64,000 nucleotides of DNA from Candidatus Latescibacterota bacterium (GTDB lineage Bacteria > Latescibacterota > UBA2968 > UBA8231): positions 384,001 to 448,000 of the forward strand of contig OZ242005.1 of assembly GCA_965204725.1 (NCBI GenBank), read 5' to 3'. The translations under genes and the position numbers were made by a program. Positions within the stretch are counted from its first letter, which is position 1. The number at the start of each line of letters is the position of its first letter. This document shows, in pieces, positions 13,309 to 62,658 of this stretch. The notes under the pieces are model-generated. The model was not told the DNA's origin, searched no databases, and saw only the letters and a list, made by a program, of their open reading frames with translations.

Positions 13309-13385
13309 CCGCCTTTTCTGGTGTTGCCGCTGCATCCGGGATCGAGGGCGTCCCGCCCTCGACGAGGGCAAGATGCCCTCGATCC
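13309..13385. repeat. REP-like element, family B
   Basis: GGGATCGAGGGCGTCCCGCCCTCGACGAGGGCAAGATGCCCTCGATCC (double hairpin). Also at 47093-47140 and 57430-57477; the CCGCCTTTTCTGGTGTTGCCG flank is shared with 57401. Confidence 0.85.
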
Positions 13386-13540
13386 TTGGAAGGCTGGGGA
13401 TCGGTGTCGTATCGTAAGTAGCTGCTTAAAAAAAGCGGCTGGTCCTTTTTAATTTTGCCTTCTCTGGCCGTCTTTACTTGTAGAAGGGTTGATTTGCGTC
13501 ATCGGCCTCACTTGAACACCTAATTTGAAATTTGAACATC

Positions 13541-15391: not shown

Positions 15392-15444
15392 CGCAGCCGT
15401 TGGATTCAAATGAGTAGGCACGTTCAAACGCAAGGAGATCCAAG

Positions 15445-33814: not shown

Positions 33815-33851
33815 AATCGCATTCTCCTCTTTCAATAGTACCTATTGCTAC

Positions 33852-35440: not shown

Positions 35441-35461
35441 GACATCGATCCAAATCATTAA

Positions 35462-35596
35462 GAGGCTGTCTGAAAACTCTGGTGGTCGTCCTTTGCGTCT
35501 AAACGATCCCGTCTGGATTCCCGCTTTCGCGGGAATGACGGATCCTGTCTCTACGGCGTGTTCAACAGGACCCAAGGTGGGTCTTCAGACAGCCTC
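35462..35596. mobile_element. 135-bp MITE with terminal inverted repeats and TAA target duplication
   Basis: TAA|GAGGCTGTCTGAAAAC ... GTCTTCAGACAGCCTC|TAA; contains a family-A palindrome at ~35513-35540. Confidence 0.85.
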
Positions 35597-39624: not shown

Positions 39625-39627
39625 GCG

Positions 39628-42288: not shown

Positions 42289-42305
42289 GGTGCTCTTTTC
42301 GCCCC

Positions 42306-45368: not shown

Positions 45369-45380
45369 GATGACACCTCC

Positions 45381-46982: not shown

Positions 46983-46990
46983 GACTGTTT

Positions 46991-47019
46991 GATTTAATCA
47001 ACGGCTAGGCGAGTGTCAA
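46991..47019 (-). promoter_or_regulatory. Putative promoter at the head of the envelope cluster
   Basis: Minus strand TTGACA-N17-TAAATC, 8 nt before ATG 46982; no SD, so possibly leaderless. Confidence 0.4.
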
Positions 47020-47092
47020 GTTTTTTGCCGATATGACTAACTGTATGTAATTCTTGGCTTTATTTACAACTCCAGCGGCTCCCACTGCGTCC

Positions 47093-47140
47093 GGGATCGA
47101 GGGCGTCCCGCCCTCAACGAGGGCAAGATGCCCTCGATCC
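47093..47140. repeat. REP-like element, family B
   Basis: Near-identical to 13338-13385 and 57430-57477. Confidence 0.85.
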
Positions 47141-47189
47141 TGAGAGGACGGAGGGCTGGTGTCGTGTAGTACAAGCGGCGCATCTACTT

Positions 47190-50100
47190 CTACTTAATCA
47201 GCAGGATGCGCCTAATTTGGGCGTCCTCGCGCAGGCGCAAGCGCACCAAGTACACGCCGCTGGCCAAGGTGCTTGGTGCTTCCCAGCGGACGTGGTACAC
47301 CCCCGCGGCCTGATAGCCATCAACCAAGCGGGCGACGACTTGCCCCAATACATTATAGATGGTCAAGCGCACCGGCTGGCCGTGTGCGAGGGCGTAGTGG
47401 ATCATCGTGCTCGCGTTAAAGGGGTTGGGGTTGTTGAGCAGCGAGGCGTTGGGCGTCCCGGTCGCCTCAGCTGAGGGCATGCCGTCGTCGGCGAGGGTGC
47501 GGGTGGCGATCACGCGCACGGTGTATTGGGTGTCAGCGGCCAGCCCCGGAATGATGTAGCTCGTCGGTATGGGGACGGCGGCTTGGCGAGTGGTGCGGTC
47601 GTAGGCTGCCTCAACTTCCACAGTGCTGTCGGGGACGGTGGCTTGGCGGGTGGCTGGGTCGTAGGCTTGTGCGCCGGTTTTCCACTGCACCTTGTAGCCA
47701 TCGGCGCCGGGGACCGCCGTCCAAGACACGTGCAACTGGCCGACCCCAGCCATCACTTGCACTCCTGTCACCTGTCCCGGAGGGGCCGCCCTCGGCATGT
47801 CTGTCGAGGGGGTCGAGGCCGTGCCATCTCCCGCGTCGGTCTCGGTGGCAATCACCTGCACTGAGTAGGTCGTGCCAGCGGTTAGGTTCGGGATCGTCGC
47901 TGTAGTCGTGGTGCCGCTGATGATGGTCATCTGCCGGACATCGTCGAAGGCTTGGTCGTCGGTTTTCCACTGCACCTTGTAGCCATCGGCGCCCGGCACC
48001 TGCTCCCACGATACGACCAACTGTCCCGCCCTCGGCGTTATCTCCACGCCCGTTACTTGACCCGGGGGCCGCCGCACCAAGACGGTGTAGTATCGTGCGG
48101 TGGTTCCGTCGGAGGCCGTTACCCGGAAGATGATGGCCGTCGTCCCGACAGCCAGATCGACCTGATGGCCGGCCGTTTCGGGGTCGGCATCGTCGGGCGT
48201 GATGATAGCGACTTGGCCGGTGGCGGCGGCAGCCGCGCCCGTCAGGCGGCTCTCGGCGTGAGCTACATCTGCGGTGTAGGTCAGGGTGGTGGGATCAAAC
48301 GCTTCGTTGATCCCGACCGAGAGCTCCTCGGCCGAAAAGGTGATCTCGTTGAGCATGACCTCAGCGGTCGTCACGACAAAGTCCGCGCTCACGCCGCCGA
48401 TGGTGACGGTGGCGATGGTGGTCGTGTTGAAACCGACACTGGCGGTCACTTGGACGGCGACGGTCTGCCGGTTGGTGATCGTCGAGCCGGAAAAGGCGCG
48501 GCCATTCACGACCAAGGAACCGCCGGAGACGGAGATGGATGTGGGCGCTTCGAGGCCGCGGACGGTGATGGCATTGCTGGTGACTGTTGCGCCCGGGTCC
48601 ACTCCGGTTTGCGCCGTGAACGAGAAGGAGCCCGGCGTGGTGTTCGGCGTCCGGGTGGTCACCGAAAAGTCCGCGCTCACCCCGCCGATGGTGACGGTGG
48701 CGGTGGTGGTGGCGGCGTACCGGGAACTGGCTCGGACTTGGACAGCGACGGTCTGCCCGTTGGAGACCGTCGCGCCCGTGAAGGTGCTGCCGTCCACGAC
48801 CAACGTACCGCCCCGAACCGAAATGGACGCGGGGGCTTCGAGGCCGCTTACAGTGATGGCGTTGCTGGTGACTGTTGCGCTCGGCGACACTTGGGTGCGC
48901 GGCGTGAACGAGAAGGCGTCCGGCGTCGTTTCCGGCGTATGCGCGGCTTGGATCACGGCCACCTCAATCGTCTGTTCCGCCTTCAAGGTGCCATCGTTCG
49001 CGGTTACCGTGATCGTGACGTCACCCACTGCCACAGGGCGAATAGTCACTATCGCCCCCGCCACGCCGACGGTTGCAATGTCGGTTTCGCTCAAACGGGC
49101 AGTGTAGGTCAGCGCATCGCCATCCGGGTCGCTGAAGTGGTTGGCCGCGTTGACCGTGATGTTGGGACCGCCCACGGTCAAGGTTTGCGCCGCAATCGCG
49201 CTTGAGGCGACGGGTGCCCGGTTGGGGTCGGCCGTGACGGTGATTGCAACGGTATCCGTGCCATTCGAGTTCCCATCGCTGACTGTTAGGGTAAACGTCA
49301 GCGTCGCATCGGTAGTCAAATCGGGCGCGGTGAACGAGGGCGTCTGCGTCGTCGCCCCTGTCAACGTCACGTTCGGACTGCCGCCCGTCTGAGTCCACAA
49401 ATACGTCAGAGCACCACTCTCCGGATCGCTGCCGCTGCCCGAAAGAGACACCTCCGCGCCTTCGGCCACGGTCCGGTCAGTGCCGGCGTTGGCTGTCGGC
49501 GCGTCGTTGTCCGCCGTGATGGTGATGTCCACCGTATCCGTGCCGTTCAAGGTCCCATCGCTGACCGTCAGGGTAAATGTCAGCGTCACGTTGGCGGTCA
49601 ACTCCGGCGCGGTGAACGAGGGCGTCTGCGTCGTCGCTCCCGTCAACGTCACGTTCGGACTGCCGCCCGTCTGGCTCCACAAATACGTCAAGGCACCACT
49701 CTCCGGATCGCTGCCGCTACCCGAAAGGGACACCGCGTCGCCTTCGTCCACCGTCTGGTCAGTGCCCGCGTTGGCTGTCGGCGCGTCGTTATCGGCGCGG
49801 ATGGTGATTTCTACGGTATCCGTGCCGTTTGAGTTTCCATCGTTGACCGTCAAGGTGAACGTCAGCGTCACGTTGGCGGTTACATTCGGCGCGGTGAACG
49901 AGGGCGTCTGCGTCGTCGCCCCGGTCAACGTCACGTTCGGACTGCCCCCTGTCTGAGTCCACAAATACGTCAGCGCACCACTCTCCGGATCGCTGCCGCT
50001 GCCCGAAAGAGAGACCTCCGCGCCTTCGTCCACGGTCTGGTTCATGCCCGCTTCGGCTGTCGGCGCGTCGTTGTCCGCCGTGATGGTGATTTCTACGGTA

Positions 50101-53100
50101 TCCGTGCCGTTTGAGTTTCCATCGTTGACCGTCAGAGTGAACGTCAGCGTCACGTTGGCGGTTACATTCGGCGCGGTGAACGAGGGCGTCTGTGTCGTCG
50201 CGCCGGTCAACGTCACGTTCGGACTGCCCGCCGTCTGAGCCCATGAATACGTCAGGCCCTGACTCTCTGGGTCGCTGCCGCTGCCCGAAAGAGACACCGT
50301 GTCCCCTTCGTTCACGGTCTTGTCAGTGCCGGCGTTGGCCGACGGCGCGTCGTTATCGGCCGTGATGGTGATTTCTACGGTATCGGTGTCCGTCGAGTTC
50401 CCATCGCCGACCGTCAGAGTGAATGTCAGCGTCGCGTTGGCGAGCAACTCCGGCGCGGTGAACGAGGGCGTTTGTGTCGTCGCGCCCGTCAACGTCACGT
50501 TTGGGCTGCCCCCCGTCTGACTCCATGAATACGTCAGGCTCTGCCCCTCTGGGTCGGTGCCACTACCGGAAAGGGACACCGTGTCGCCTTCGTCCACGGT
50601 CTGGTTCGTGCCCGCTTCGGCTGTCGGCGCGTCGTTATCGCCTCGGACGGTGATTTCTACGGTATCCGTGCCGTTCAAAACCCCATCGTTGACCGTCAGG
50701 GTAAACGTCAGCGTCACGTTGGCGACTACATTCGGCGCAGTGAACGAGGGCGTCTGCGTCGTCGCACCCGTCAAGGTTACGGTCGGGCTGCCCCCCGTCT
50801 GACTCCATGAATACGTCAGGTTCTGACTCTCCGGATCGCTGCCACTGCCCGAAAGGGACACCGTGTCGCCTTCGTCCACCGTCTGGTTCATGCCGGCGTT
50901 GGCTGTCGGCGCATCGTTGTCCGCCACGATGGTGATGTCCACCGTATCCGTGCCGTTTGAGGTCCCATCGTTGACTGTCAGGGTGAACGTCAGCGTCACG
51001 TTGGCGACTACGTTCGGCGCAGTGAACGAGGGCGTTTTTGTCGTCGCGCCCGTCAACGTCACGTTCGGGCTGCCCCCCGTCTGAGCCCACGAATACGTCA
51101 GGGTCTGCCCCTCCGGATCGGTGCCACTGCCCGAAAGGGAGACCTCGGCCCCTTCGGCCACGGACTGGTCATCACCGGCGCTGGCCGACGGCGCGTCGTT
51201 ATCGGCGCGGATGATGATGTCCACCGTATCCGTGCCGTTTGAGGTCCCATCGTTGACCGTCAGGGTAAACGTCAGCGTCGCGTTGGCGAGCAACTCCGGC
51301 GCGGTGAACGAGGGCGTTTGCGTCGTCGCGCCGGTCAACGTCACGTTTGGGCTGCCCCCCGTCTGACTCCACGAATACGTCAGGTTCTGACTCTCCGGAT
51401 CGCTGCCGCTGCCCGAAAGAGACACCGTGTCGCCTTCGTCCACCGTCTGGTCAGTGCCCGCGTTAGCCGACGGCGCGTCGTTGTCGGCGCGGATGATGAT
51501 GTCCACCGTATCCGTGCCGTTTGAGGTCCCATCGTTGACCGTCAGGGTAAACGTCAGCGTCGCGTTGGCGAGCAACTCCGGCGCGGTGAACGAAGGGGTT
51601 TTCGTCGTCGCACCCGACAACGTCACGTTTGGGCTGCCCGGCGTCTGAGCCCACGAATACGTCAGATTCTGACTCTCCGGATCGGTGCCGCTGCCCGACA
51701 GGGACACCGTGTCGCCTTCGTCCACCGTCTGGTCAGTGCCCGCGTTGGCCGACGGCGCGTCGTTATCGGCCGTGATGGTGATGTCCACCGTATCCGTGCC
51801 GTTTGAGGTCCCATCGTTGACCGTCAGGGTAAACGTCAGCGTCGCGTTGGCGAGCAACTCCGGCGCGGTGAACGAAGGGGTTTTCGTCGTCGCACCCGAC
51901 AACGTCACGTTTGGGCTGCCCGGCGTCTGAGCCCACGAATACGTCAGGTTCTGACTCTCTGGATCGGTGCCGCTGCCCGAAAGGGACACCGTGTCGCCTT
52001 CGTCCACCGTCTGGTCAGTGCCCGCGTTAGCCGACGGCGCGTCGTTATCGGCCGTGATGGTGATTTCTACGGTATCCGTGCCGTTTGAGGTCCCATCGTT
52101 GACTGTCAGGGTGAACGTCAGCGTCACGTTGGCGAGCAACTCCGGCGCGGTGAACGAAGGGGTTTTCGTCGTCGCGCCGGTCAACGTCACGTTTGGGCTG
52201 CCCCCCGTCTGACTCCACGAATACGTCAGGTTCTGACTCTCTGGATCGGTGCCACTGCCCGAAAGGGACACCGTGTCGCCTTCGTCCACCGTCTGGTCAG
52301 TGCCCGCGTTAGCCGACGGCGCGTCGTTATCGGCCGTGATGGTGATTTCTACGGTATCCGTGCCATTTGAGGTCCCATCGTTGACTGTCAGGGTGAACGT
52401 CAGCGTCACGTTGGCGAGCAACTCCGGCGCGGTAAACGAGGGCGTCTGCGTCGTCGCCCCCGTCAACGTCACGGTCGGGGTGCCCCCCGTCTGACTCCAT
52501 GAATACGTCAGGGCACCACTCTCTGGGTCGCTGCCGCTGCCCGAAAGAGACACCGTATCGCCTTCGTCCACGGTCTGGTTCATGCCGGCGTTGGCTGTCG
52601 GCGCGTCGTTCTCAGCTTGGATGGTGATGTCCACCGTATCCGTGCCGTTCAAGGTCCCATCGTTGACCGTTAGGGTGAACGTCAGCGTCGCGTCGGTGGT
52701 CACCTCGGGCGCGGTGAACGAAGGGGTTTTCGTCGTCGCACCCGTCAACGTCACGTTTGGGGTGCCCGCCGTCTGGCTCCATGAATACGTCAGGCTCTGT
52801 CCCTCCGGGTCGGTGCCGCTGCCCGAAAGGGACACCGAGGTGCCGTCGGCCACGGTCTGGTTCATGCCGGCGTTGGCTGTCGGCGCGTCGTTATCGGCTT
52901 GGATGGTGATGTCCACCGTATCGGTATCCGTCAAGCTCCCATCGCTGACCGTCAGGGTGAACGTCAGCGTCGCGTCGGCGATTAGATTCGGCGCGGTGAA
53001 CGAGGGCGTTTGCGTCGTCGCGCCCGTCAACGTCACGGTCGGAGTGCCCCCCGTCTGCGTCCACGAATAAGTCAGAGCACTACTCTCCGGGTCGGTGCCG

Positions 53101-55934
53101 CTACCCGAAAGGGACACTGCGTCGCCTTCGGCCACGGTCTGGTCATCACCCGCGTTAGCCGTGGGTATGCCGTCCACTGCGATGGTGAACGTCAGCGTGG
53201 CGGGGTCGTTGTCGATATCGGTGACTTTCCACGTGTAGGTGGTCGCCGCTTGGTTCACGCTCGGCGTACCGGAGACCCTCTGGGTGGTCGTGTTCCGGGT
53301 CACGCCCCTCGGCAAGCTCGGCGACAGGGTGTAGGTCAGCGTGCCATTGCCACCGCTGGCCGTGGGCAGGGTGAACGCGGTAATCGCTTGGTTCTGACTC
53401 CACGCTTGGTTGGAAATGGTCTGTTGGCCAAAGGTCGGCATCCGGTCCGTGGCCATTGAGAAGTCCGTGGTCACCGAGAAGTTCGCGCTCACCCCGCCGA
53501 TGGTGACCGTGGCGGAGGTAGTCGCGCGGAAAGCACTACTGGAGGTGACCTTGACGGCAACGGTCTGCGCGTTGGTGATCGTCGCGCCGGTGAAGTCGTT
53601 GCCATCGACGACTAAGGTGCCGCCGGTGACCGAGATGGGCGCGGCTCCGTTGAGGCCGCTTATGGTGACGGTATTGCTGGTGATCGTCGTGCTGGGCATC
53701 ACCCCGTTTTGCGCGGTGAACGTGAACGCATCCGGCGCGGTGTCCGCGACCGAGTATGAGCCATTGACCTTCACCTCAGCCATGTGCAAATAGTTGCTAC
53801 CCGTCAACTGCACCCGTACATAACGGCCCGTGCGATTAACATTGGCGATCGTCGTCGGGCGACCCGCCCTACCGCTCTGGTGATATTCCGCAACCCCCGA
53901 CTGTGCCCGACTCGCCGCTACGGAAGTACCGGTAAAACGCACGTCCGAGACAAACACATAATAGTTCGATAACCGATCAGGGCACTCGGACGGGCAGTCA
54001 GTACGGTTGTATATCTGGATATTGTCGATATAGCTGACCGTACCCAGATCCACTTCCCACCAGTTTTCAGAACCGAACCTCGTGTGAGAAACCTCATTGC
54101 CGGACCCTGCGGTATTGCCATCCACCGCTATACTCGCAACAGAGCGCCCCTCCGTACCCGACTGATAGGCGGGCTTGCCCTGTGCCAAGTTACTAACAGT
54201 GGCTGTATCCACTTGGAAACGTTGCGTCACTTCATCGGCATAGTACGTAACATCGCCGCTGTTCTTGGCCTTGATCACCACTTCCCCGGTCCCAGTGCCT
54301 ACCGTCACCTTGTTACCCACAAGGGTGGCCGGACCCGATACCACTTCATAGCTAACGGTCAAACCGAACGCATCCGTGGTGGCATTCAGGTAGAACACCT
54401 CATTGGGGTATTTGTTCGGAATCGCCGGAAAGGTAATACGCTGCACAGTCTTGCCATCGTTGATCCGACCCAGCAGGTCATAGCGGGTCATTAGGCTCCA
54501 GCTTGACCCGCCATCGGTGGTCGAGATCAGCGGGGTCGGATACGCCGAGAAGTACTGAGTGGGGCTGATAGTCTGGTTAGTGCCTTCGTCCAGCCCCACC
54601 AGATAGAGATTACGACGCCCGGATTGGCGGTCCATAAACAAACGCTGATGCGGCACCGAATGATTGGCCTTCACCTCCACATCCGGGGCCAGCAATACCT
54701 TCTCGTTGTCCCAAGCCGTCGCACTTCTGGGACGCCGTGAATAGCCGACACCCCTATAGAGGCCAGGACTCGCCAAGGGTCCAGTATAGGTCCGGTAGCT
54801 GGTGTGCAGGGTATCGCCGTCATCAATTACCAGATCGACATAGGTCGTCGCCTTGTTGACATTGGGCACGTTGGAATTCTGGTTGGTTAGGGTCGAGGTG
54901 GTATTGGTACTGGTCGCCTTATAGTAAGGAAAGGTCTCCCCGTGGGTGCCCAAAATAACAATCACAGTATCCGTTGAAGTAATACCGATGACCGGCATAG
55001 AGTGGGGATCGGCCCAATAGTGCGGCCGCTCGGGAATTCCGTGGGTTTGCGCGAGATGGGCATGATGGTCAATGTTTTTCGTTGCCCGGTCTATCGTCGC
55101 CACCCAGATCCGCGAACTGTTGGAAGGGTTGCCACTGGCGTCTTTCTCCGACAAATAGGTAACATGTATTTTGCCGTTCTTGCTAACCACCGAGGGTGTT
55201 CCGCCAGAATGCGAAGAATGCGATTCTGCACGGGTCTTTGCCAGAGTAAGAGTATCACTCAAGCTCAGGGTGCCATTGCTGTTTTTAGAGGGTATATACA
55301 GGCGCAGTTTATGCCGATTCGCAAGACTGACCCAAGGCCATGTTATAATCACGGGGGGGTTGGAATTGTCGCCATGGCTCATGTTTTTTTCGATGTTAAC
55401 AGGACCAGGAATCTCGTAGATATGGAAAACTGGGGAAGATGCGGTAATATCGGGCGAGTACAGCAAGCGCCATTCGTGGTTAGAAATCTGCAAAGGCGCA
55501 TAGAGCGCATCGTTGCTATCAATGGTTATCTCGGTATAAAAAAGCTTACTGTATCCTGTCCAATCCGCCGTACTGCCGGACGCCGTACTATAATCAATAT
55601 CGTGCCACAGCCCATTGCGCAGCGTCCTGATCTTGCCTGTCAACGTGCCTGTCCGGTCTGCTAAAAAATAGGGGCGGTTTTTGGAATCAAAGGCAATAGC
55701 AAGCCCCATGGGCGTATCCACACCTTCTACCTGTATCGGTTGCTGCGAGTGGGGCGGATAGGTCCAAACCGGAAACGCAGCATGAGCGGTGGTGCTCACA
55801 CTCAACAGGCCCAATAGCAAAAGCAGGGACCACCAGACACCAGATAAGGCACGAAATGTTGATCCGCAGCGTCCTTTCGCACATAAGGCGTCATCCCGCG
55901 CAAGCGGGAAACGCCCGCGCTTCCCACCCGTCAT
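47190..55934 (-). CDS. Giant secreted adhesin, copy A: BNR/propeller-like head, F-type lectin, Ig/He_PIG, 14 PKD-like repeats, cadherin-like, FN3 x2, T9SS/FlgD-like CTD
   Basis: About 2900-aa ORF; signal peptide ...LLLLLGLLSVSTTAHA; Asp-box-like STTDGGSSW; NLAQGKPAYQS...SHT...WWEVDLG...YNRTD; C-terminal NNPNPFNAST...IYNVLGQ...ASGVY...LLIK. Start codon uncertain. Confidence 0.85.
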   Translation of the reverse strand: MTGGKRGRFPLARDDALCAKGRCGSTFRALSGVWWSLLLLLGLLSVSTTAHAAFPVWTYPPHSQQPIQVEGVDTPMGLAIAFDSKNRPYFLADRTGTLTGKIRTLRNGLWHDIDYSTASGSTADWTGYSKLFYTEITIDSNDALYAPLQISNHEWRLLYSPDITASSPVFHIYEIPGPVNIEKNMSHGDNSNPPVIITWPWVSLANRHKLRLYIPSKNSNGTLSLSDTLTLAKTRAESHSSHSGGTPSVVSKNGKIHVTYLSEKDASGNPSNSSRIWVATIDRATKNIDHHAHLAQTHGIPERPHYWADPHSMPVIGITSTDTVIVILGTHGETFPYYKATSTNTTSTLTNQNSNVPNVNKATTYVDLVIDDGDTLHTSYRTYTGPLASPGLYRGVGYSRRPRSATAWDNEKVLLAPDVEVKANHSVPHQRLFMDRQSGRRNLYLVGLDEGTNQTISPTQYFSAYPTPLISTTDGGSSWSLMTRYDLLGRINDGKTVQRITFPAIPNKYPNEVFYLNATTDAFGLTVSYEVVSGPATLVGNKVTVGTGTGEVVIKAKNSGDVTYYADEVTQRFQVDTATVSNLAQGKPAYQSGTEGRSVASIAVDGNTAGSGNEVSHTRFGSENWWEVDLGTVSYIDNIQIYNRTDCPSECPDRLSNYYVFVSDVRFTGTSVAASRAQSGVAEYHQSGRAGRPTTIANVNRTGRYVRVQLTGSNYLHMAEVKVNGSYSVADTAPDAFTFTAQNGVMPSTTITSNTVTISGLNGAAPISVTGGTLVVDGNDFTGATITNAQTVAVKVTSSSAFRATTSATVTIGGVSANFSVTTDFSMATDRMPTFGQQTISNQAWSQNQAITAFTLPTASGGNGTLTYTLSPSLPRGVTRNTTTQRVSGTPSVNQAATTYTWKVTDIDNDPATLTFTIAVDGIPTANAGDDQTVAEGDAVSLSGSGTDPESSALTYSWTQTGGTPTVTLTGATTQTPSFTAPNLIADATLTFTLTVSDGSLTDTDTVDITIQADNDAPTANAGMNQTVADGTSVSLSGSGTDPEGQSLTYSWSQTAGTPNVTLTGATTKTPSFTAPEVTTDATLTFTLTVNDGTLNGTDTVDITIQAENDAPTANAGMNQTVDEGDTVSLSGSGSDPESGALTYSWSQTGGTPTVTLTGATTQTPSFTAPELLANVTLTFTLTVNDGTSNGTDTVEITITADNDAPSANAGTDQTVDEGDTVSLSGSGTDPESQNLTYSWSQTGGSPNVTLTGATTKTPSFTAPELLANVTLTFTLTVNDGTSNGTDTVEITITADNDAPSANAGTDQTVDEGDTVSLSGSGTDPESQNLTYSWAQTPGSPNVTLSGATTKTPSFTAPELLANATLTFTLTVNDGTSNGTDTVDITITADNDAPSANAGTDQTVDEGDTVSLSGSGTDPESQNLTYSWAQTPGSPNVTLSGATTKTPSFTAPELLANATLTFTLTVNDGTSNGTDTVDIIIRADNDAPSANAGTDQTVDEGDTVSLSGSGSDPESQNLTYSWSQTGGSPNVTLTGATTQTPSFTAPELLANATLTFTLTVNDGTSNGTDTVDIIIRADNDAPSASAGDDQSVAEGAEVSLSGSGTDPEGQTLTYSWAQTGGSPNVTLTGATTKTPSFTAPNVVANVTLTFTLTVNDGTSNGTDTVDITIVADNDAPTANAGMNQTVDEGDTVSLSGSGSDPESQNLTYSWSQTGGSPTVTLTGATTQTPSFTAPNVVANVTLTFTLTVNDGVLNGTDTVEITVRGDNDAPTAEAGTNQTVDEGDTVSLSGSGTDPEGQSLTYSWSQTGGSPNVTLTGATTQTPSFTAPELLANATLTFTLTVGDGNSTDTDTVEITITADNDAPSANAGTDKTVNEGDTVSLSGSGSDPESQGLTYSWAQTAGSPNVTLTGATTQTPSFTAPNVTANVTLTFTLTVNDGNSNGTDTVEITITADNDAPTAEAGMNQTVDEGAEVSLSGSGSDPESGALTYLWTQTGGSPNVTLTGATTQTPSFTAPNVTANVTLTFTLTVNDGNSNGTDTVEITIRADNDAPTANAGTDQTVDEGDAVSLSGSGSDPESGALTYLWSQTGGSPNVTLTGATTQTPSFTAPELTANVTLTFTLTVSDGTLNGTDTVDITITADNDAPTANAGTDRTVAEGAEVSLSGSGSDPESGALTYLWTQTGGSPNVTLTGATTQTPSFTAPDLTTDATLTFTLTVSDGNSNGTDTVAITVTADPNRAPVASSAIAAQTLTVGGPNITVNAANHFSDPDGDALTYTARLSETDIATVGVAGAIVTIRPVAVGDVTITVTANDGTLKAEQTIEVAVIQAAHTPETTPDAFSFTPRTQVSPSATVTSNAITVSGLEAPASISVRGGTLVVDGSTFTGATVSNGQTVAVQVRASSRYAATTTATVTIGGVSADFSVTTRTPNTTPGSFSFTAQTGVDPGATVTSNAITVRGLEAPTSISVSGGSLVVNGRAFSGSTITNRQTVAVQVTASVGFNTTTIATVTIGGVSADFVVTTAEVMLNEITFSAEELSVGINEAFDPTTLTYTADVAHAESRLTGAAAAATGQVAIITPDDADPETAGHQVDLAVGTTAIIFRVTASDGTTARYYTVLVRRPPGQVTGVEITPRAGQLVVSWEQVPGADGYKVQWKTDDQAFDDVRQMTIISGTTTTATIPNLTAGTTYSVQVIATETDAGDGTASTPSTDMPRAAPPGQVTGVQVMAGVGQLHVSWTAVPGADGYKVQWKTGAQAYDPATRQATVPDSTVEVEAAYDRTTRQAAVPIPTSYIIPGLAADTQYTVRVIATRTLADDGMPSAEATGTPNASLLNNPNPFNASTMIHYALAHGQPVRLTIYNVLGQVVARLVDGYQAAGVYHVRWEAPSTLASGVYLVRLRLREDAQIRRILLIK
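49222..53170 (-). repeat. 14 tandem 282-bp (94-aa) PKD-like repeats
   Basis: Counted 14 units of APxAxAGxxQTVxEGxxVSLSGSGxDPE...TPSFTAP...LTFTLTVxDG in the translation. Confidence 0.9.
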
Positions 55935-55983
55935 CCCGCGAAAGAACGTCACCCCGCGCCTCGACACGGGGCGGGAATCCAGC
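55929..55983. repeat. Extended family-A palindrome
   Basis: Reverse complement is nearly identical to 628-681. Confidence 0.8.
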
Positions 55984-56019
55984 CTTGAATGATATGGAGT
56001 AGCTTAAACACTAGGGGAC

Positions 56020-56228
56020 CTAGTCTTCCGGGTTAAACTCCAAAGCGAGGATCGACGCCCTAAGCTGGACGTTTCTTCTGACTTCAGCGGCGATTTTTTC
56101 GGGATCGAGCTCCGGCTCGTCCCAACTCGCTCGCCAGATACTATACTCGGACTCTATATCGAATCCACTTCGACGCGGCTCGCTCTCAACCACATAGAAC
56201 AGCCGACTCCCGGCCATATCAAGGGCAA
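56020..56228 (-). pseudogene. 3' fragment duplicate of the 62659-64000 gene
   Basis: Near-identical to 62659-62867 (MAGSRLFY...LEFNPED); homology stops at 56228. Confidence 0.9.
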
Positions 56229-56246
56229 AGAGAGGGAACTATACAG

Positions 56247-56300
56247 AAGATCGCGCTCGGTGGCCTGCAACATCGCCCTTGCACATTTAGGATCGCTCAT
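56247..56300 (-). pseudogene. Truncated HEPN-like partner gene (first ~18 codons)
   Basis: MSDPKCARAMLQATERDL overlaps the MNT stop as expected for a HEPN partner, then runs into the duplication junction. Confidence 0.55.
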
Positions 56301-56622
56301 AAAGCACCTTCCCCTCGCGCAGTGCCCGCGCCAAAACGTGGTTGAGGGAATCGCGCCAGTAGGCGACGTCTGCACGGGAATAGACCAAGACATCGGCCGG
56401 GACGGAAAATCCCGCTAGCGCGTGATAGAGCCGGACCATCTCTTGGCGGCGACTGCGCCCCGGACCAAACGGCTCGGCTTCCAAGACGATCAGATCGACG
56501 TCCGAGTCTTCCCGCTCGTCGCCCCGGCCACGAGAGCCGAAGAGGATTACCTGCTCGGGATCGACTTCGGCGACGATGGCCTGGACCATCTGCTCAATGA
56601 GGGTGTCGGTGATGTAGGTCAC
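56287..56622 (-). CDS. Minimal nucleotidyltransferase (MNT) domain protein
   Basis: PEQVILFGSRGRGD..EDSDVDLIVL, ADVLV, ALREGKVLYE. Confidence 0.9.
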   Translation of the reverse strand: MTYITDTLIEQMVQAIVAEVDPEQVILFGSRGRGDEREDSDVDLIVLEAEPFGPGRSRRQEMVRLYHALAGFSVPADVLVYSRADVAYWRDSLNHVLARALREGKVLYERS

Positions 56623-56726
56623 GGGCGGGGTCTCGGGTGTGCGGCTCCTATATAATGCTCGGCTTTACATCTATCGACTGAGCAGCGGGCGGAAGGACCT
56701 GCTCCTAGGGAGACGACACCATAGAA

Positions 56727-57047
56727 CTAGCCGTCAAATCCCAATGCAAAAAGCAACGCACCGCGCAATTCTTCCAGCTTTGCCAAGGGGAGAGATACGA
56801 TTAAGGTGCCTATTTTACCCTTGGACACGGTCTGGATGTGATCGAGGTTGATCGCACACTCTTTGGGCATTCCATCTCGTTGAGATAGCAGTACTTCTGA
56901 GGGAATGTCCCGAATGGTTGACGTCACCGGCGCTACAGTGATTTCGCCCAGATATTTAATCGCCGAATCCCTAGTGAGAATAACAACGGGTCTCCTCTTG
57001 TCTGGCTGGGCGAATCGGTACCAACGAACTTCACCGCGCCGCATCAC
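56727..57047 (-). CDS. mazF: PemK/MazF family toxin
   Basis: RRGEV, DKRRPVVILTR, VAPVTST, INLDHIQTV. Confidence 0.9.
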   Translation of the reverse strand: MMRRGEVRWYRFAQPDKRRPVVILTRDSAIKYLGEITVAPVTSTIRDIPSEVLLSQRDGMPKECAINLDHIQTVSKGKIGTLIVSLPLAKLEELRGALLFALGFDG

Positions 57048-57274
57048 TCAACCCACACTTGTTCGTCTTCCCAAGAGCTAAATTCGCCAGATTGAACCGG
57101 CTTGCGGGCATATCCCTCCCGGTGTTTTTGCTCCTTTTCTTTTATTTCTTCATACCTGAGCGCAACGTATAGAGCCTCGCGCGCAAAAGCCGATCGCGTT
57201 GTACCTGTTTTTTTTACGACCTTATCAACCGCCTCAATCAGTTCCTCGTCGAGGGTCATTTGGACTGTTCGCAT
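57044..57274 (-). CDS. Ribbon-helix-helix (CopG-type) antitoxin
   Basis: MRTVQMTLDEEL...TRSAFAREAL; overlaps the toxin start. Confidence 0.88.
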   Translation of the reverse strand: MRTVQMTLDEELIEAVDKVVKKTGTTRSAFAREALYVALRYEEIKEKEQKHREGYARKPVQSGEFSSWEDEQVWVE

Positions 57275-57400
57275 GTCTTGGCCTCCAGCATTGATTGCAA
57301 CAGAATGGCTATTTATAGCGATAACCTATGTCGCGTTGCCTGTCAAGCAGTCCACACCCCCTACAAGCGGCGCATAAAGTACGCGTCCCTTGCTTTGCGT

Positions 57401-57477
57401 CCGCCTTTTCTGGTGTTGCCGTTGCGCCTGGGATCGAGGGCGTCCCGCCCTCGGCGAGGGCAAGATGCCCTCGATCC
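57401..57477. repeat. REP-like element, family B, with extended flank
   Basis: Matches 13309-13385. Confidence 0.85.
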
Positions 57478-57520
57478 TGAGAGGACGGAGGGCTGGTGTC
57501 GTGTAGTACAAGCGGCGCAT

Positions 57521-60500
57521 CTACTTAATCAGCAGGATACGCCTAATTTGAACGTCCTCGCGCAGACGCAGGCGCACCAAGTACACGCCGCTGGCCAAGG
57601 TCCTTGGTGCTTCCCAGCGGACGTGATACACCCCCGCGGCCTGATAGCCGTCGACCAAGCGGGCGACGACTTGCCCCAATACATTATAGATGGTCAAGCG
57701 CACCGGCTGGCCGTGTGCGAGGGCGTAGTGGATCATCGTGCTCGCGTTAAAGGGATTGGGGTTGTTGAGCAAAGAGGCGTTGGGCGTCCCGGTCGCCTCG
57801 GCTGAGGGCATGCCGTCGTCGGCGAGGGTGCGGGTGGCGATCACGCGCACGGTGTATTGGGTGTCGGCGGCCAGCCCCGGAATGATGTAGCTGGTTGGTA
57901 TGGGGACAGCGGCTTGACGGGTGGTGCGGTCGTAGGCTGCCTCGGCTTGCGCGGTGGTGTCGGGGACGGTGGCTTGGCGGGTGGCTGGGTCGTAGGCTTG
58001 GGCGCCGGTTTTCCACTGCACCTTGTAGCCGTCAGCCCCGGGGACCGCTGTCCAAGACACGTGCAACTGGCCGACCCCAGCCATCACTTGCACTCCCGTC
58101 ACCTGCCCCGGAGGCGCCGCCCTCGGCATGTCTGTCGAGGGGGTTGAGGCCGTGCCAGCCCCCGCGTCGGTCTCGGTGGCAATCACCTGCACTGAGTAGG
58201 TCGTGCCAGCCGTTAGGTTCGGGATCGTCGCCGTGGTCGTGGTGCCGCTGATGATGGTCATCTGCCGGACGTCGTCGAAGGCTTGGTCGTCGGTTTTCCA
58301 CTGGACCTTGTAGCCATCGGCGCCCGGCACCTGCTCCCACGATACGACCAACTGTCCCGCCCTCGGCTCTATCGTCACGCCCGTTACTTGACCCGGAGGC
58401 CGCCGCACCAAGACGGTGTAGTAGCGTGCGGTGGTTCCGTCGGAGGCCGTTACCTGGAAGATGATGGCCGTCGTCCCGACAGCCAGATCGACCTGATGGC
58501 CAGCGAGTTCGGGATCGGCATCGTCGGGGGTGATGATAGCGACTTGGCCGGTGGCGGCGGCAGCCGTGCCCGTCAGGCGGCTCTCGGCATGGGCTACATC
58601 TGCGGTGTAGGTCAGGGTGGTGGGATCAAACGCCTCGTTGATCCCGACCGAGAGCTCCTCGGCCGAAAAGGTGATCTCGTTGAGCATGACCTCAGCGGTC
58701 GTCACGACAAAGTCCGCGCTCACCCCGCCGATGGTGACGGTGGCGATGGTGGTCGTGTTGAAACCGACACTGGCGGTCACTTGGACGGCGACGGTCTGCC
58801 GGTTGGTGATCGTCGAGCCGGAAAAGGCGCGGCCATTCACGACCAAGGTGCCGCCGGAGACGGAGATGGATGTGGGCGCTTCGAGGCCGCGGACGGTGAT
58901 GGCATTGCTGGTGACCGTCGCGCCCGGGTCCACGCCGGTTTGCGCCGTGAACGAGAAGGAGCCCGGCGTGGTGTTCGGCGTCCGGGTGGTCACCGAAAAG
59001 TCCACGCTCACGCCGCCGATGGTGACGGTGGCAGTGGTGGTGGCGGCGTACCGGGAACTGGCCCGGACTTGGACGGCGACGGTCTGCCCGTTGGCGACCG
59101 TCGCACCCGTGAAGGTGCTGCCGTCCACGACCAAGGTGCCGCCGCGGACCGAGATGGACGCGGGGACGCTGAGGCCGCTTACAGTGATGGCATTGCTGGT
59201 GACCGTCGCGCTCGGCGACACTTGGGTGCGCGGCGTGAACGAGAAGGCGTCCGGCGTCGTTTCCGGCGTGTGCGCGGCTTGGATCACGGCCACCTCAATC
59301 GTCTGTTCCGCCTTCAAGGTGCCATCGTTTGCCGTCACCGTGATCGTGGCGTCGCCTACCGCCGCAGGGCGAATGGTCACGACGGCCCCCGCCACGCTGA
59401 CGGGGACAATATCGGGTGCGCTCGAACGGGCGGTGTAGGTCAGCGCATCGCCATCCGGGTCGCTGAAGTGGTCCGCCGCGTTGACCGTGATGTTGGGACT
59501 GCCCACGGTCAAGGTCTGCGCCGCAATCGCGCTTGAGGCCACGGGTGCCCGGTTGGGGTCGGCCGTGACGGTGATTTCTACGGTATCGGTCCCCGTCAAG
59601 CTCCCATCGCTGACTGTTAGGGTGAACGTCAGCGTCGCATCGGTGGTCAAATCGGGCGCGGTGAACGAGGGCGTCTGCGTCGTCGCGCCCGTCAACGTCA
59701 CGGTCGGAGTGCCCCCCGTCTGCGTCCACGAATAAGTCAGAGCACTACTCTCCGGGTCGGTGCCGCTACCCGAAAGAGACACCGCGTCGCCTTCGTCCAC
59801 CGTCTGGTCATCACCCGCGTTGGCCGTGGGGATGCCGTTCACCGCGATAGTGAACGTCAGCGTGGCGGGGTCGTTGTCGATATCGGTGACTTTCCACGTG
59901 TAGGTGGTCGCCGCTTGGTTCACGCTCGGCGTACCGGAGACCCTCTGGGTGGTCGTGTTCCGGGTCACGCCCCTCGGCAAGCTCGGCGACAGGGTGTAGG
60001 TCAGCGTACCATTGCCACCGCTGGCCGTGGGCAGGGTGAACGCGGTAATCGCTTGGTTCTGACTCCACGCTTGGTTGGAAATGGTCTGTTGGCCAAAGGT
60101 CGGCATCCGGTCCGTGGCCATTGAGAAGTCCGTGGTCACCGAAAAGTCCGCGCTCACCCCGCCGATGGTGACCGTGGCGGTGGTAGCCGTGCGGAAAGCA
60201 CTACTGGAGGTGACCTTGACGGCGACGGTCTGCGCGTTGGTGATCGTCGCGCCCGTGAAGTCGTTGCCATCGACGACTAAGGTGCCGCCGGTGACCGAGA
60301 TGGGCGCGGCTCCGTTGAGGCCGCTTATGGTGACGGTATTGCTGGTGATCGTCGTGCTGGGCATCACCCCGTTTTGCGCGGTGAACGTGAACGCATCCGG
60401 CGCGGTGTCCGCGACCGAGTATGAGCCATTGACCTTCACCTCAGCCATGTGCAAATAGTTGCTACCCGTCAACTGCACCCGTACATAACGGCCCGTGCGA

Positions 60501-62548
60501 TTAACATTGGCGATCGTCGTCGGGCGACCCGCCCTAGAGCTCTGGTGATATTCCCCAACCCCCGACTGTGCCCGACTCGCCGCTACGGAAGTACCGGTAA
60601 AACGCACGTCCGAGACAAACACATAATAGTTCGATAACCGATCAGGGCACTCGGATGGGCAGTCGGTACGGTTGTATATCTGGATATTGTCGATATAGCT
60701 GACTGAACCCAGATCCACTTCCCACCAGTTTTCAGAACCGAACTCCGTGTGAGAAACCTGATTGCCGGACCCTCCGGTATTGCCATCCACCGCTCGACTC
60801 GCAACAGAGTAGTTCAACGTACCCGACTGATAGGCGGGCTTGCCCTGTGCCAAGTTACTAATCGTGGCGGTAGCCACTTGAAAACGTCGCGTCACTTCAT
60901 CGGCATAGTACGTAACATCGCCGCTGTTCTTGGCCTTGATCACCACTTCCCCGGTTCCACTGCCTACCGTCACCTTGTTACCCACAAGGGTGGCCGAACC
61001 CGATACCACTTCATAGCTGACGGTCAAACCGAACGCATTCGTGGTGGCATTCAGGTAGAAGACCTCGTTGGGGTATTTGTTCGGAATCGCCGGAAAGGTA
61101 ATACGCTGCACGGTCTTGCCATCGTTGATCCGACCCAGCAGGTCATAGCGGGTCATCAGGCTCCAGCTTGACCCGCCATCGGTGGTCGAGATCAAGGGAG
61201 TCGGATACGCCGAGAACCACTGGAAGGGGCAGTTGTGGCAGATCCCCTGGTTCGTGCCTTCGTCCAGCCCCACCAGATAGAGATTACGACGCCCGGATTG
61301 GCGGTCCATAAACAAACGCTGATGCGGCACCGAATGATTGTTCTTCACCTCCACATCCGGGGCCAGCAATATCTTCTCGGCGTCCCAAGCCGTCGCACTT
61401 CTGGGACGCCGTGAATAGCCCACACCCAGATAGGGGTTAGAAGAATAGGACCGGTAGCTCGTGTGCAGGGTATCGCCGTCATCAATTACCAGATCGACAT
61501 AGGTCGTCTGCCTACTGACATTGGGCACGTTGGAATTCTGGTTGGTTAGGGTCGAGGTGGTATTGGTGCTGGTCGCCTTATAGTAAGGAAAGGTCTCCCC
61601 GTGGGTGCCCAAAAGAACAATCACAGTATCCGTTGAAGTAATACCGATGACCGGCATAGAGTGGTTATCGGCCCCACTGTGCGCATTGGGATATCCGTGG
61701 GTTTGCGCGAGATGGGCATGATGGTCAATGTTTTTCGTTGCCCGGTCTATCGTCGCCACCCAGATCCGCGAACTGTTGGAATCGTTGCCACTGGCGTCTT
61801 TCTCCGACAAATAGGTAACATGTATTTTGCCGTTCTTGCTAACCACCGAGGGTGTTCCGCCGGAATGCGAATAATGCGGTTCTGCATGGGTCGATGCCAG
61901 ATCAAGAGAATCACTCAAGCTCAGGGTGCCATCGCTGTTCTTAGAGGGTATATACAGGCGAATTCTAGCCCGCTGGGCAGACTGAAGACCTCTCGCATCC
62001 CATGCTATAATCGCGGGGGGGTTGGAATTGTCGCCATGACTCATGTTTTTTTCGATGTTAACAGGATTAGGAAGATCGTAGGTATGGAAAACTGGGGAAG
62101 ATGCGGTAATATCGGGCGAATACAGCAAGCGCCATGTGCCAGTAGTCGACATAGACGCATAGAGCGCATTGCTGCTATCAATGGTTACCTCGGTATAAAA
62201 CTTCTCAGCGAATCCTGTCCAACCCGCCGTACTATAATCAATATCGTGCCACAGCCCATTGCGCAGCGTCCTGATCTTGCCTGTCAACGTGCCTGTCCGG
62301 TCTGCTAAAAAATAGGGGCGGTTTTTGGAATCAAAGGCAATAGCAAGCCCCATGGGCGTATCCACACCTTCTACCTGTATCGGTTGCTGCGAGTGGGGCG
62401 GATAGGTCCAAACCGGAAACGCAGCATGAGCGGTGGTGCTCACACTCAACAGGCCCAATAGCAAAAGCAGGGACCACCAGACACCAGATAAGGCACGAAA
62501 TGTTGATCCGCAACGTCCTTTTCGCACATAAGGCGTCTTCCCGCGCAA
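57521..62548 (-). CDS. Giant secreted adhesin, copy B: same architecture with a single PKD-like repeat
   Basis: 1675-aa ORF colinear with copy A; start at TTG 62548 or GTG 62527. Confidence 0.85.
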   Translation of the reverse strand: MRGKTPYVRKGRCGSTFRALSGVWWSLLLLLGLLSVSTTAHAAFPVWTYPPHSQQPIQVEGVDTPMGLAIAFDSKNRPYFLADRTGTLTGKIRTLRNGLWHDIDYSTAGWTGFAEKFYTEVTIDSSNALYASMSTTGTWRLLYSPDITASSPVFHTYDLPNPVNIEKNMSHGDNSNPPAIIAWDARGLQSAQRARIRLYIPSKNSDGTLSLSDSLDLASTHAEPHYSHSGGTPSVVSKNGKIHVTYLSEKDASGNDSNSSRIWVATIDRATKNIDHHAHLAQTHGYPNAHSGADNHSMPVIGITSTDTVIVLLGTHGETFPYYKATSTNTTSTLTNQNSNVPNVSRQTTYVDLVIDDGDTLHTSYRSYSSNPYLGVGYSRRPRSATAWDAEKILLAPDVEVKNNHSVPHQRLFMDRQSGRRNLYLVGLDEGTNQGICHNCPFQWFSAYPTPLISTTDGGSSWSLMTRYDLLGRINDGKTVQRITFPAIPNKYPNEVFYLNATTNAFGLTVSYEVVSGSATLVGNKVTVGSGTGEVVIKAKNSGDVTYYADEVTRRFQVATATISNLAQGKPAYQSGTLNYSVASRAVDGNTGGSGNQVSHTEFGSENWWEVDLGSVSYIDNIQIYNRTDCPSECPDRLSNYYVFVSDVRFTGTSVAASRAQSGVGEYHQSSRAGRPTTIANVNRTGRYVRVQLTGSNYLHMAEVKVNGSYSVADTAPDAFTFTAQNGVMPSTTITSNTVTISGLNGAAPISVTGGTLVVDGNDFTGATITNAQTVAVKVTSSSAFRTATTATVTIGGVSADFSVTTDFSMATDRMPTFGQQTISNQAWSQNQAITAFTLPTASGGNGTLTYTLSPSLPRGVTRNTTTQRVSGTPSVNQAATTYTWKVTDIDNDPATLTFTIAVNGIPTANAGDDQTVDEGDAVSLSGSGTDPESSALTYSWTQTGGTPTVTLTGATTQTPSFTAPDLTTDATLTFTLTVSDGSLTGTDTVEITVTADPNRAPVASSAIAAQTLTVGSPNITVNAADHFSDPDGDALTYTARSSAPDIVPVSVAGAVVTIRPAAVGDATITVTANDGTLKAEQTIEVAVIQAAHTPETTPDAFSFTPRTQVSPSATVTSNAITVSGLSVPASISVRGGTLVVDGSTFTGATVANGQTVAVQVRASSRYAATTTATVTIGGVSVDFSVTTRTPNTTPGSFSFTAQTGVDPGATVTSNAITVRGLEAPTSISVSGGTLVVNGRAFSGSTITNRQTVAVQVTASVGFNTTTIATVTIGGVSADFVVTTAEVMLNEITFSAEELSVGINEAFDPTTLTYTADVAHAESRLTGTAAAATGQVAIITPDDADPELAGHQVDLAVGTTAIIFQVTASDGTTARYYTVLVRRPPGQVTGVTIEPRAGQLVVSWEQVPGADGYKVQWKTDDQAFDDVRQMTIISGTTTTATIPNLTAGTTYSVQVIATETDAGAGTASTPSTDMPRAAPPGQVTGVQVMAGVGQLHVSWTAVPGADGYKVQWKTGAQAYDPATRQATVPDTTAQAEAAYDRTTRQAAVPIPTSYIIPGLAADTQYTVRVIATRTLADDGMPSAEATGTPNASLLNNPNPFNASTMIHYALAHGQPVRLTIYNVLGQVVARLVDGYQAAGVYHVRWEAPRTLASGVYLVRLRLREDVQIRRILLIK

Positions 62549-62658
62549 GCGGGAAACGCCCGCGCAAGCGGGAAACGCCCGCGCTTCCCACCCGTCATTC
62601 CCGCGAACGCGGGAATCCAGCCTTGAATGATATGGAGTAGCTTAAACACTAGGGGGGC

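Follow-up and report, generated by a model that had tools for sequence, protein, structure and literature searches.

Tandem type IX secretion cargos of a Candidatus Latescibacterota bacterium with predicted lyase-type propeller heads and hypervariable loops on a near-identical framework

Introduction

The seven-bladed BNR_4 propellers include the PL25 ulvan lyase PLSV_3936 (5UAM/5UAS) and the PL42 L-rhamnose-alpha-1,4-D-glucuronate lyase FoRham1 (7ESK). According to PMC8377490, His123, His143, Tyr188 and Arg204 are the catalytic residues of PL25, serving in acid/base catalysis and carboxylate neutralization, mutagenesis of their FoRham1 counterparts (His85, His105, Tyr150 and Arg166) abolished activity, and the lyase active site lies on the anterior face with loops of several blades around it; the paper also reports that GH145 keeps the two histidines and the arginine, yet carries out its known hydrolysis at the opposite, posterior face. 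Here we analyze two tandem genes, A and B, in a 64,000-nucleotide (nt) stretch (the window; contig OZ242005.1, positions 384,001 to 448,000, assembly GCA_965204725.1) of a Candidatus Latescibacterota genome of 5.43 Mb in 2 contigs (94% complete), whose products each carry such a propeller, referred to below as the head. Like PL25 and PL42, the heads of A and B are seven-bladed BNR_4 modules in which a histidine, a second histidine 20 residues on, a tyrosine and an arginine 16 residues after it are aligned, and here, as in the lyases, these residues belong to a face made by inter-blade and B-C loops. They differ from both lyases in being just 20-30% identical to them, in the distance from the second histidine to the tyrosine (34 residues as opposed to 45), in tipping a stalk of 1200-2400 residues with a type IX secretion system (T9SS) sorting domain and a lectin domain, and in the hypervariability of the cleft loops; their activity is a prediction.

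Several other described systems share individual features with this locus. The GH145 enzymes (BT3686 and others; 5MUK, 4IRT, 5MVH, 5MUM) are the best profile matches, belong to the same Pfam family and share the anterior His/His/Arg; they differ by hydrolysis on the posterior face through His48, a position that aligns to Asn/Ser in A and B at an unreliable alignment edge (chain residue 48 being the first one aligned). The glycan-binding surface protein BabA of Helicobacter pylori reportedly carries "diversity loops", binding-site loops that are said to be polymorphic between strains and shuffled with paralogs, but on an unrelated fold, in two loops rather than nine and without catalytic-type residues. 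Targets of diversity-generating retroelements (DGRs) likewise concentrate local hypervariability on a conserved ligand-binding surface scaffold, an analogy only, since A and B come without a reverse transcriptase, a template repeat or an adenine-specific pattern, and show indels and nine separate segments. In the fungal WD40 proteins HET-D and HET-E (PMC1805685), a propeller is likewise homogenized by exchange among paralogs while positive diversifying selection acts on a few positions of its interaction face; those proteins serve eukaryotic, cytoplasmic, NLR-type allorecognition, with four positions per repeat and repeat shuffling, whereas the proteins described here are bacterial and secreted, their blades are non-repetitive, and whole loops with indels are swapped around an enzyme-type site. 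Fibrillar adhesins and giant T9SS surface proteins (PMC9210967) also project a tip on an Ig-like/PKD/Fn3 stalk with varying repeat number, much as the PKD units of the A and B stalks number about 15 and 1, respectively; the tip of A and B differs in being an enzyme-family propeller joined to a lectin domain. In a literature search that left out supplements and subscription journals, we found no account of hypervariable cleft loops in the BNR_4/PL25-PL42-GH145 family, and a paper on sponge Latescibacterota (PMC12993501) has no mention of ulvan, T9SS, adhesin or rhamnose.

Results

Nine segments are replaced within a near-identical head

The heads of A and B are 95.8% identical in protein sequence over their framework and 35% identical over nine multi-residue segments (V1 to V9; Table 1). 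The original prediction, made from the letters of the window, had described about eight short replaced segments within an otherwise near-identical framework, together with a difference in the lectin loops; all eight pairs are indeed present, as is the lectin-loop difference (TEGR in A, TLNY in B), and a ninth segment (TLTLAKTRAESHS / SLDLASTHAEPHY) completes the set. Framework codons are unchanged at 356 of 381 positions, the DNA being near-identical even at synonymous sites, while 52 of the 78 aligned loop codons differ, 27 of these at two or three positions, and the head alignment further contains six indel events amounting to 17 gap columns.

The differences cluster far more tightly than chance would allow. 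Nonsynonymous (dN) and synonymous (dS) divergence reach 0.64 and 0.14 in the loops (dN/dS 4.6; 78 codons) against 0.015 and 0.057 in the framework (dN/dS 0.26; 381 codons), in keeping with the diversifying selection originally suggested, and nonsynonymous to synonymous differences stand at 77:7 and 13:15, respectively (Fisher p = 1.5e-6), with the qualification that the loop classes behind both the ratio of 4.6 and this p value were set from the A/B differences themselves. Loop differences fall at codon positions 1, 2 and 3 in 39, 33 and 12 cases and comprise 51 transversions and 33 transitions; the excess at the first two positions is what selection for amino-acid change yields at low dS. The possibility that the loops acquired segments of old, divergent DNA by import was considered and is not favored, as about 13 of 14 codons of conserved in-loop residues are identical, a reading of the alignment with low power at a dS of 0.06-0.16.

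Sequence profiles place the head among the PL25-PL42-GH145 propellers

The B head matches BNR_4 (PF15892) with 34.9 bits against a cut-off of 27.3, and both genes lie above the cut-off in a scan of the genome (38.3 and 35.3 bits). A single-sequence search of the PDB with the head gave no hits at E <= 1. We aligned B with 48 relatives (A, the homolog from another genome of the genus referred to as G046, and 46 distant members at 20-30% identity, taken from the best 150 hits), with head numbering equal to the B residue number minus 44. At E <= 0.001 the resulting family profile matches structures of GH145, PL25 and PL42 only: 5MUK at 9.8e-18, with 4IRT, 5MVH and 5MUM (E 1e-17 to 7e-16 for the GH145 group), the PL25 ulvan lyase 5UAM at 4.9e-9 and PL42 FoRham1 7ESK at 6.7e-4.

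Five columns are invariant in all 49 aligned members: H252, H272, Y306, R322 and W344. The first four face His99, His119, Tyr164 and Arg180 in the SEQRES numbering of 5UAM, which by a calculated offset of +24 are the catalytic His123, His143, Tyr188 and Arg204, and this His-His-Tyr-Arg set is intact in both A and B. Judged by sequence, the head is thus a member of the BNR_4/PL25-PL42-GH145 propellers and not merely an adhesin knob, so that the adhesin label initially attached to these proteins does not do justice to a head whose variable loops lie beside a putative catalytic set. The subfamily is rare: a set of 1.84 billion cluster representatives yields 165 proteins at E <= 0.001 and just 5 at E <= 1e-30.

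The propeller fold that had been proposed from the sequence was recovered in an AlphaFold2 model of head B (predicted local distance difference test 85.9, predicted template modeling score 0.88), whose 27 strands of at least 3 residues, plus a short closing strand, fit seven four-stranded blades. Structural alignment with VIA-align gives Z scores of 20-24.5 to seven-bladed propellers, including PL42 7ESK (Z 20.1, root-mean-square deviation 3.9 over 336 residues).

Variable segments lie on one predicted face, beside the catalytic-type residues

Consecutive loops of an up-and-down propeller point to one face and the other in turn, and all nine variable segments sit in, or at the strand ends by, even-to-odd loops of the model (4>5, 6>7, 8>9, 10>11, 12>13, 16>17, 20>21, 22>23 and 26>27), which assigns them to a single face by strand parity, a topological rather than distance-based assignment. 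H252 and H272 are found in loops of the same parity, Y306 after and R322 before such a loop; in B numbering, V6 lies just before His296, V7 just before Tyr350 and V8 just after Arg366. Within the limits of the predicted model, the variable segments therefore lie on the face of the catalytic-type residues, as the proposal of a variable propeller face had anticipated.

By predicted-strand class, 34 of 122 residues in same-face loops differ between A and B, compared with 5 of 94 in opposite-face loops (Fisher p = 1.1e-5), and the strand residues that differ (26 of 173) are mostly at ends next to variable loops; all 17 indel columns fall on the catalytic face. When strands are halved between the faces, dN is 0.21 and 0.16 on the catalytic face and 0.03 and 0.04 on the other, with dN/dS of 1.6-3.1 and 0.75-0.9, respectively. 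Among the 46 distant members, loop length on the same face varies with a standard deviation of up to 14 residues, while on the opposite face it is 0-2.1, suggesting that the hypervariable segments are the loops that usually form the cleft in this family.

Further alleles vary in the same loops and appear mosaic

Word-indexed searches found relatives in other assemblies, namely P0004 (90%), P0005 (84%), P0156 (85%), P0006 (72%), P0009 (65%) and P0007 (39%), so that proteins of the A/B architecture are not confined to the present genome. Across five alleles (A, B, P0004, P0005 and P0156), framework identity is 94-96% and loop identity 35-76%, each loop occurs in 4-5 distinct versions, and V1, V2, V5, V6, V8 and V9 have a version unique to each allele. 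Varying columns number 93 of 226 on the catalytic face and 17 of 180 on the other (p = 1.8e-13). The distant P0006, P0008, P0009 and G046 proteins vary in the same loops, with more length changes. As a separate observation, P0156, on a 513-kb contig, has a framework 95-96% identical and novel loops, and stops at residue 626 within the lectin domain, which may reflect a frameshift, a truncation or a faulty assembly.

Which allele is nearest depends on the part of the gene: for P0004 it is B in V1-V5 and A, P0005 and P0156 in V7-V9, and for A it is P0005 in V1-V5 and P0156 in V6-V8. These switches point to recombination between loop-bearing blocks, read from mosaics of protein sequence only and not from allele DNA.

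Reads carry the same pattern. Sampled words of head A were found in 17 runs from 7 studies among the matches listed, with labels of sponge or marine metagenomes or coded organisms and no RNA run among them, and read contigs from four runs of four studies (X1 to X4) were compared with head A. X1, which may be the source sample, and X2 contain head A with 0 and 1 differing letters, and their Logan unitigs are interrupted where loops meet framework, which is what a second copy with the same framework should cause; the concern that the two copies might be a chimeric assembly is not borne out by these runs, nor by the occurrence of the architecture in other assemblies. In X3 and X4, about 26 of 40 differing places among those listed sit in the nine segments, although these cover just 16% of the stretch (26 further places lie beyond the listing), and some of these contigs may be B-like copies matched to A. 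Length changes are seen as well: V1 lacks 15 nt, V8 gains a GGC and V6 has three insertions of a single base.

The gene is sparsely distributed. Of 30 other genomes from the genus, one has a homolog at E <= 1e-10 (G046, 70% identity), and a scan of genome contigs for relatives found that locus only; of the scans of metagenome contigs, the first found no relative, and one with P0004 as query returned 16 loci matching PKD/stalk repeats only, never the head. The G046 homolog adjoins the same peptidyl-prolyl isomerase, F5/8C-protein, unknown and TPR genes as in the window (37684-55967, compared with 1-16000 of the G046 locus), inverted relative to them; its neighbors share 83-95% protein identity with their counterparts against 67% for the head region, which indicates a fast-evolving accessory gene at a conserved site.

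No dedicated diversifier is found in the genome

A search for RVT_1 reverse transcriptases in the genome, where 94% completeness makes any absence less than absolute, gave no matches, the control being positive in 3 of 14 known genomes; tblastn of the genome finds two head loci only, and blastn-short of head DNA outside A and B gives 4 chance matches of 17-22 nt, with no silent cassette or template repeat among them. The loop differences comprise all six kinds of base difference, neither copy has an adenine at 34 of the 84 sites, and within the loops 31 adenines are shared unchanged by the two. The heads thus lack the features of DGR targets, and the extra partial donor copies of cassette-based antigenic variation are missing as well, although the two paralogs can still exchange. 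With only two head copies, no RVT_1, changes away from adenine and six indel events, DGRs and donor cassettes were rejected as candidates. Of the targeted diversification initially envisaged, by segmental gene conversion or by strong selection, the part that stands is recombination and selection, on the grounds of mosaic alleles and dN/dS above 1; the targeting is not supported, in view of the missing transcriptase, the lack of any further copy or cassette, and the mixture of base types and indels. Ordinary mutation, combined with strong diversifying selection and with recombination, accounts for the variation better than a dedicated diversifier does.

Stalk, secretion signal and lectin domain

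According to Pfam and NCBIfam, B consists in order of a signal peptide, the BNR_4 propeller, an Ig-like linker, an F5/8 type C/NedA-like galactose-binding domain, Ig-like repeats, a K319L-like PKD domain, a cadherin-like domain, two Fn3 domains and a T9SS type A sorting domain (Pfam scores: F5_F8_type_C_2 1.3e-14, K319L-like PKD 1.9e-17, cadherin-like 6.8e-10, fn3 6.6e-17); gene A has about 14 PKD-type units more than B. The sorting domain scores 34.3 bits against a TIGR04183 cut-off of 23, and just 18.4 bits with Pfam Por_Secre_tail, under its cut-off of 27. A search of the genome limited to SprA found one SprA_N match (84.5 bits) in a 2198-residue frame, so that a type A sorting domain above threshold and a translocon in the same genome, the two marks of a T9SS cargo, are both present. 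On this sequence evidence A and B are cargos of type IX secretion in which a stalk carries a distal head; most likely they are displayed at the cell surface, or shed from it, head outermost. Three further proteins, at 31796-33835, 35618-37687 and 42306-45368 (all on the reverse strand), have CHU_C or FlgD_ig-type C-terminal tails; one carries an F5/8 type C domain, and all lie in the same gene string. This region of the window is likely rich in T9SS cargos.

The F5/8 type C (CBM32-like) domain, for which sugar binding is predicted, is found in both proteins, with 55 bits (F5_F8_type_C_2; cut-off 27.8) and 35.7 bits (F5_F8_type_C; cut-off 28.2) in B and 58.1 and 38.1 bits in A. Its A/B differences bunch at A residues 606-630, with a dN/dS of 1.34 over 145 codons. 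Here A and B are closer to each other than either is to P0004 or P0005, which suggests that the paralogs have exchanged sequence inside this genome.

Locus organization

A and B are tandem duplicates, and represent a rare accessory gene of a sponge-associated Candidatus Latescibacterota. Their DNA is 92.6% identical across 3346 nt of the 5' part and 93.8% across 2310 nt of the 3' part. The duplicated unit takes in the upstream region, since the non-coding stretch 5' of A listed in Table 1 has its near-identical equivalent 5' of B; similarity also continues for 98 nt beyond each stop codon, where identity is 95.9% and an inverted repeat is present. Synonymous divergence is uneven along the pair, at 0.04-0.08 in the head framework, the lectin and the first stalk domains and 0.16 in the last 708 codons; the 3' halves concerned (47190-49300 in A, 57521-59650 in B) thus have a roughly threefold dS. 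To judge from the sequences, the two halves of the paralogs would differ in their history, as a result of partial gene conversion or of recombination between alleles. The content of guanine and cytosine (GC) is 0.54-0.56 in the head-encoding parts (54001-56000 and 60001-64000) and 0.63-0.66 in the stalk parts.

A short palindromic repeat element (55924-55990) runs over the annotated 5' end of open reading frame (ORF) A and is also translated at the N-termini of P0004 and P0156. Its 16-mer and 12-mer occur 22 and 24 times in the genome, and contig depth rises about 20-fold over it, with many differing flanks. Because this multi-copy repeat covers 55924-55967, the GTG at 55967 is probably not the true start of A, which would lie downstream.

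The 1.5-kb spacer between B and A holds three small ORFs (56287-57271, reverse strand): a ribbon-helix-helix protein (RHH_1, 1.4e-5), a PemK/MazF-like toxin (1.6e-14) that overlaps the stop of the ribbon-helix-helix ORF, and a Polbeta/NTP_transf_2 nucleotidyltransferase (1.9e-11), which may be the antitoxin half of a HEPN/MNT pair with a seemingly missing or degraded partner. Elsewhere in the window, a TdeIII-type restriction endonuclease (1.6e-36) and an N6/N4 DNA methylase (2.6e-36) are encoded at 33852-35575 (reverse strand), a low-GC patch (0.48 against about 0.6-0.65 across most of the window) that is probably an acquired restriction-modification island.

Table 1. Coordinates of the A and B features in the window
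Feature	Position in A	Position in B	Strand	Remarks
Gene A	47190-55967		(-)	Intact ORF, 2925 codons
Gene B		57521-62548	(-)	Intact ORF, 1675 codons; paralog of A
Head	54369-55772	61034-62416	(-)	Seven-bladed BNR_4 propeller; A residues 66-533, B residues 45-505 (B: modeled part)
Span of variable segments	54552-55580	61217-62224	(-)	
Variable segment 1 (V1)	55542-55580	62201-62224	(-)	
Variable segment 2 (V2)	55473-55496	62135-62155	(-)	
Variable segment 3 (V3)	55404-55421	62066-62083	(-)	
Variable segment 4 (V4)	55305-55352	61961-62014	(-)	
Variable segment 5 (V5)	55215-55253	61871-61909	(-)	
Variable segment 6 (V6)	55005-55037	61664-61693	(-)	
Variable segment 7 (V7)	54849-54857	61508-61516	(-)	
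Variable segment 8 (V8)	54753-54791	61427-61450	(-)	
Variable segment 9 (V9)	54552-54572	61217-61246	(-)	
Stretch with invariant set		61451-61663	(-)	
First His of the set	55002-04	61661-63	(-)	A His322, B His296
Second His of the set	54942-44	61601-03	(-)	A His342, B His316
Tyr of the set	54840-42	61499-501	(-)	A Tyr376, B Tyr350
Arg of the set	54792-94	61451-53	(-)	A Arg392, B Arg366
Lectin domain	53775-54149	60440-60814	(-)	F5/8 type C, NedA-like galactose-binding (Pfam)
PKD array	49228-53156		(-)	A only; 13.9 copies of a 282-nt unit (Tandem Repeats Finder), K319L-like PKD; B has one
T9SS type A C-terminal sorting domain	47202-47429	57533-57760	(-)	TIGR04183
Non-coding stretch upstream of A	55968-56228		(-)	About 259 nt 96.9% identical to the stretch 5' of B

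Discussion

The pattern described here is striking and well supported, and its explanation is conventional. We consider it probable, rather than secure, that A and B expose a lyase-type propeller whose hypervariable cleft loops evolve under diversifying selection and recombination, a reading for which dN/dS above 1, mosaic alleles and uneven dS argue together. The head would bind, and probably cleave by beta-elimination, a glycan containing uronic acid, the nine same-face loops forming the substrate cleft and setting its specificity; the scaffold and the catalytic-type residues stay fixed as the loops change between paralogs and among alleles. Ordinary point mutations and small indels would supply the new loop versions, strong diversifying selection would fix them, and homologous recombination among paralogs and alleles would shuffle them and homogenize the framework. 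Specificity would then be what selection acts on, the likeliest selective agents being variable acidic glycans of the host or environment, which would favor new specificities, or phages and host factors docking on the exposed face, from which the loops would offer escape.

Several observations weigh against this reading, in addition to the loop classes drawn from the A/B differences, the topological face assignment, the protein-only mosaics and the possible B-like contigs mentioned above. The nonsynonymous to synonymous contrast between faces is by itself not significant (76:13 vs 13:5, p = 0.18), because synonymous changes are few and the signal resides in the density of nonsynonymous ones. 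Searches with Foldseek (PDB) and VIA-align over a wide set return mostly generic seven-bladed propellers, among which the lyases do not stand above unrelated propellers and lectins, and Photorhabdus lectins and CylK rank equal to or above them; in terms of modeled structure the fold search thus leaves enzyme versus lectin undecided, and it is the sequence profiles that discriminate. The conserved set falls short of proving lyase activity, since GH145 keeps His/His/Arg and yet hydrolyzes at the opposite face. Finally, PF07470, the family of GH88/GH105 unsaturated-uronyl hydrolases, has no match in the 94%-complete genome, and no polysaccharide-utilization context surrounds A and B within the window, which together weaken a nutritional role for a lyase.

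The same observations lend themselves to a head that is a non-catalytic lectin or adhesin, with the His/His/Tyr/Arg set engaged in binding or vestigial and the loops tuning adhesion at the end of a stalk. The stalk-plus-tip architecture with its T9SS sorting domain, the seven-bladed Photorhabdus and Burkholderia lectins among the top Foldseek and VIA-align matches, the missing GH88/GH105 and the GH145 precedent of the same residues left unused for the known hydrolysis all suit it, as does a BNR_4-overlapping cluster that PMC9210967 counts among candidate adhesive tip domains of "ambiguous function". We nonetheless regard it as unlikely, because all 49 members, at 20-30% identity, keep the four residues, because these map to experimentally tested catalytic residues of PL25 and PL42, and because the lectin matches come without a sequence signal while the profile finds GH145, PL25 and PL42 only. 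No greater weight goes to antigenic or receptor escape, in which the distal face is a docking site of phage receptor-binding proteins or sponge factors, an account that is compatible with the preferred one. It would accommodate dN/dS above 1, radical multi-nucleotide codon changes, the excess of transversions over transitions (51 vs 33), the indels, the six loops (V1, V2, V5, V6, V8 and V9) that are unique in each of 5 alleles, and a gene that is accessory (1 of 30 genomes) and diverges faster than its neighbors (67% vs 83-95%). Escape alone, however, predicts variation on the whole exposed surface including the outsides of the blades, whereas it is seen mainly around the catalytic-type residues; moreover, the same loops vary in length throughout the enzyme family, and no phage or host partner is known.

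Far less probable are two accounts in which the pattern is produced by a machinery or by an error. That a hypermutation or cassette system, either a DGR or gene conversion from silent donors, writes the loops is suggested by the sharp transition from identical framework DNA to rewritten codons and by changes mainly at codon positions 1 and 2; it is made very improbable by the absence of RVT_1 from the 94%-complete genome, the presence of just two head copies, the lack of any outside DNA match above 22 nt, the 34 of 84 sites without adenine, the 31 unchanged adenines and six indel events, and a spread over nine segments in 1.1 kb rather than one contiguous variable repeat. An assembly artefact from chimeric strains, or relaxed constraint and decay of one copy, deserves equally little credence: framework repeats this similar make assembly difficult, Logan unitigs end at loop borders and the P0156 allele stops at 626 residues, yet the genome is in 2 contigs, runs of two studies (one of which may be the source sample) contain head A with 0 and 1 differing letters, and other assemblies encode proteins of this architecture; as for decay, both ORFs are open (2925 and 1675 codons) with intact catalytic-type residues, and neutral decay could not produce a dN of 0.64 at a dS of 0.06-0.16.

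Beyond the lyase-type propeller with loops under diversifying selection and recombination, one may speculate, with considerable doubt, that A, B and their alleles make up a population-level combinatorial repertoire, in which a fixed lyase-type scaffold bears nine exchangeable cleft loops next to a lectin domain that varies with them. Sponge symbionts would use it to follow acidic glycans that are polymorphic and specific to the host, a glycan "recognition code" between symbiont and host that would be generated by recombination of tandem paralogs and alleles without a mutator, perhaps within a new polysaccharide-lyase family. The comparison with antibodies made at the outset is an analogy only, and the suggestion of an undescribed recognition system is a possible one.

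If the preferred reading is true, this locus would constitute an unusually clean case of natural specificity engineering, with a 95% identical scaffold, fixed catalytic-type residues and nine loops rewritten in five alleles, and would supply matched natural variants for the structure-function study of substrate-cleft loops in a rare, uncharacterized branch of the PL25/PL42/GH145 propellers. It would likewise imply that variation of an antibody-like kind does not require a diversity-generating retroelement, and would offer a direct handle on how sponge symbionts recognize or process acidic glycans.

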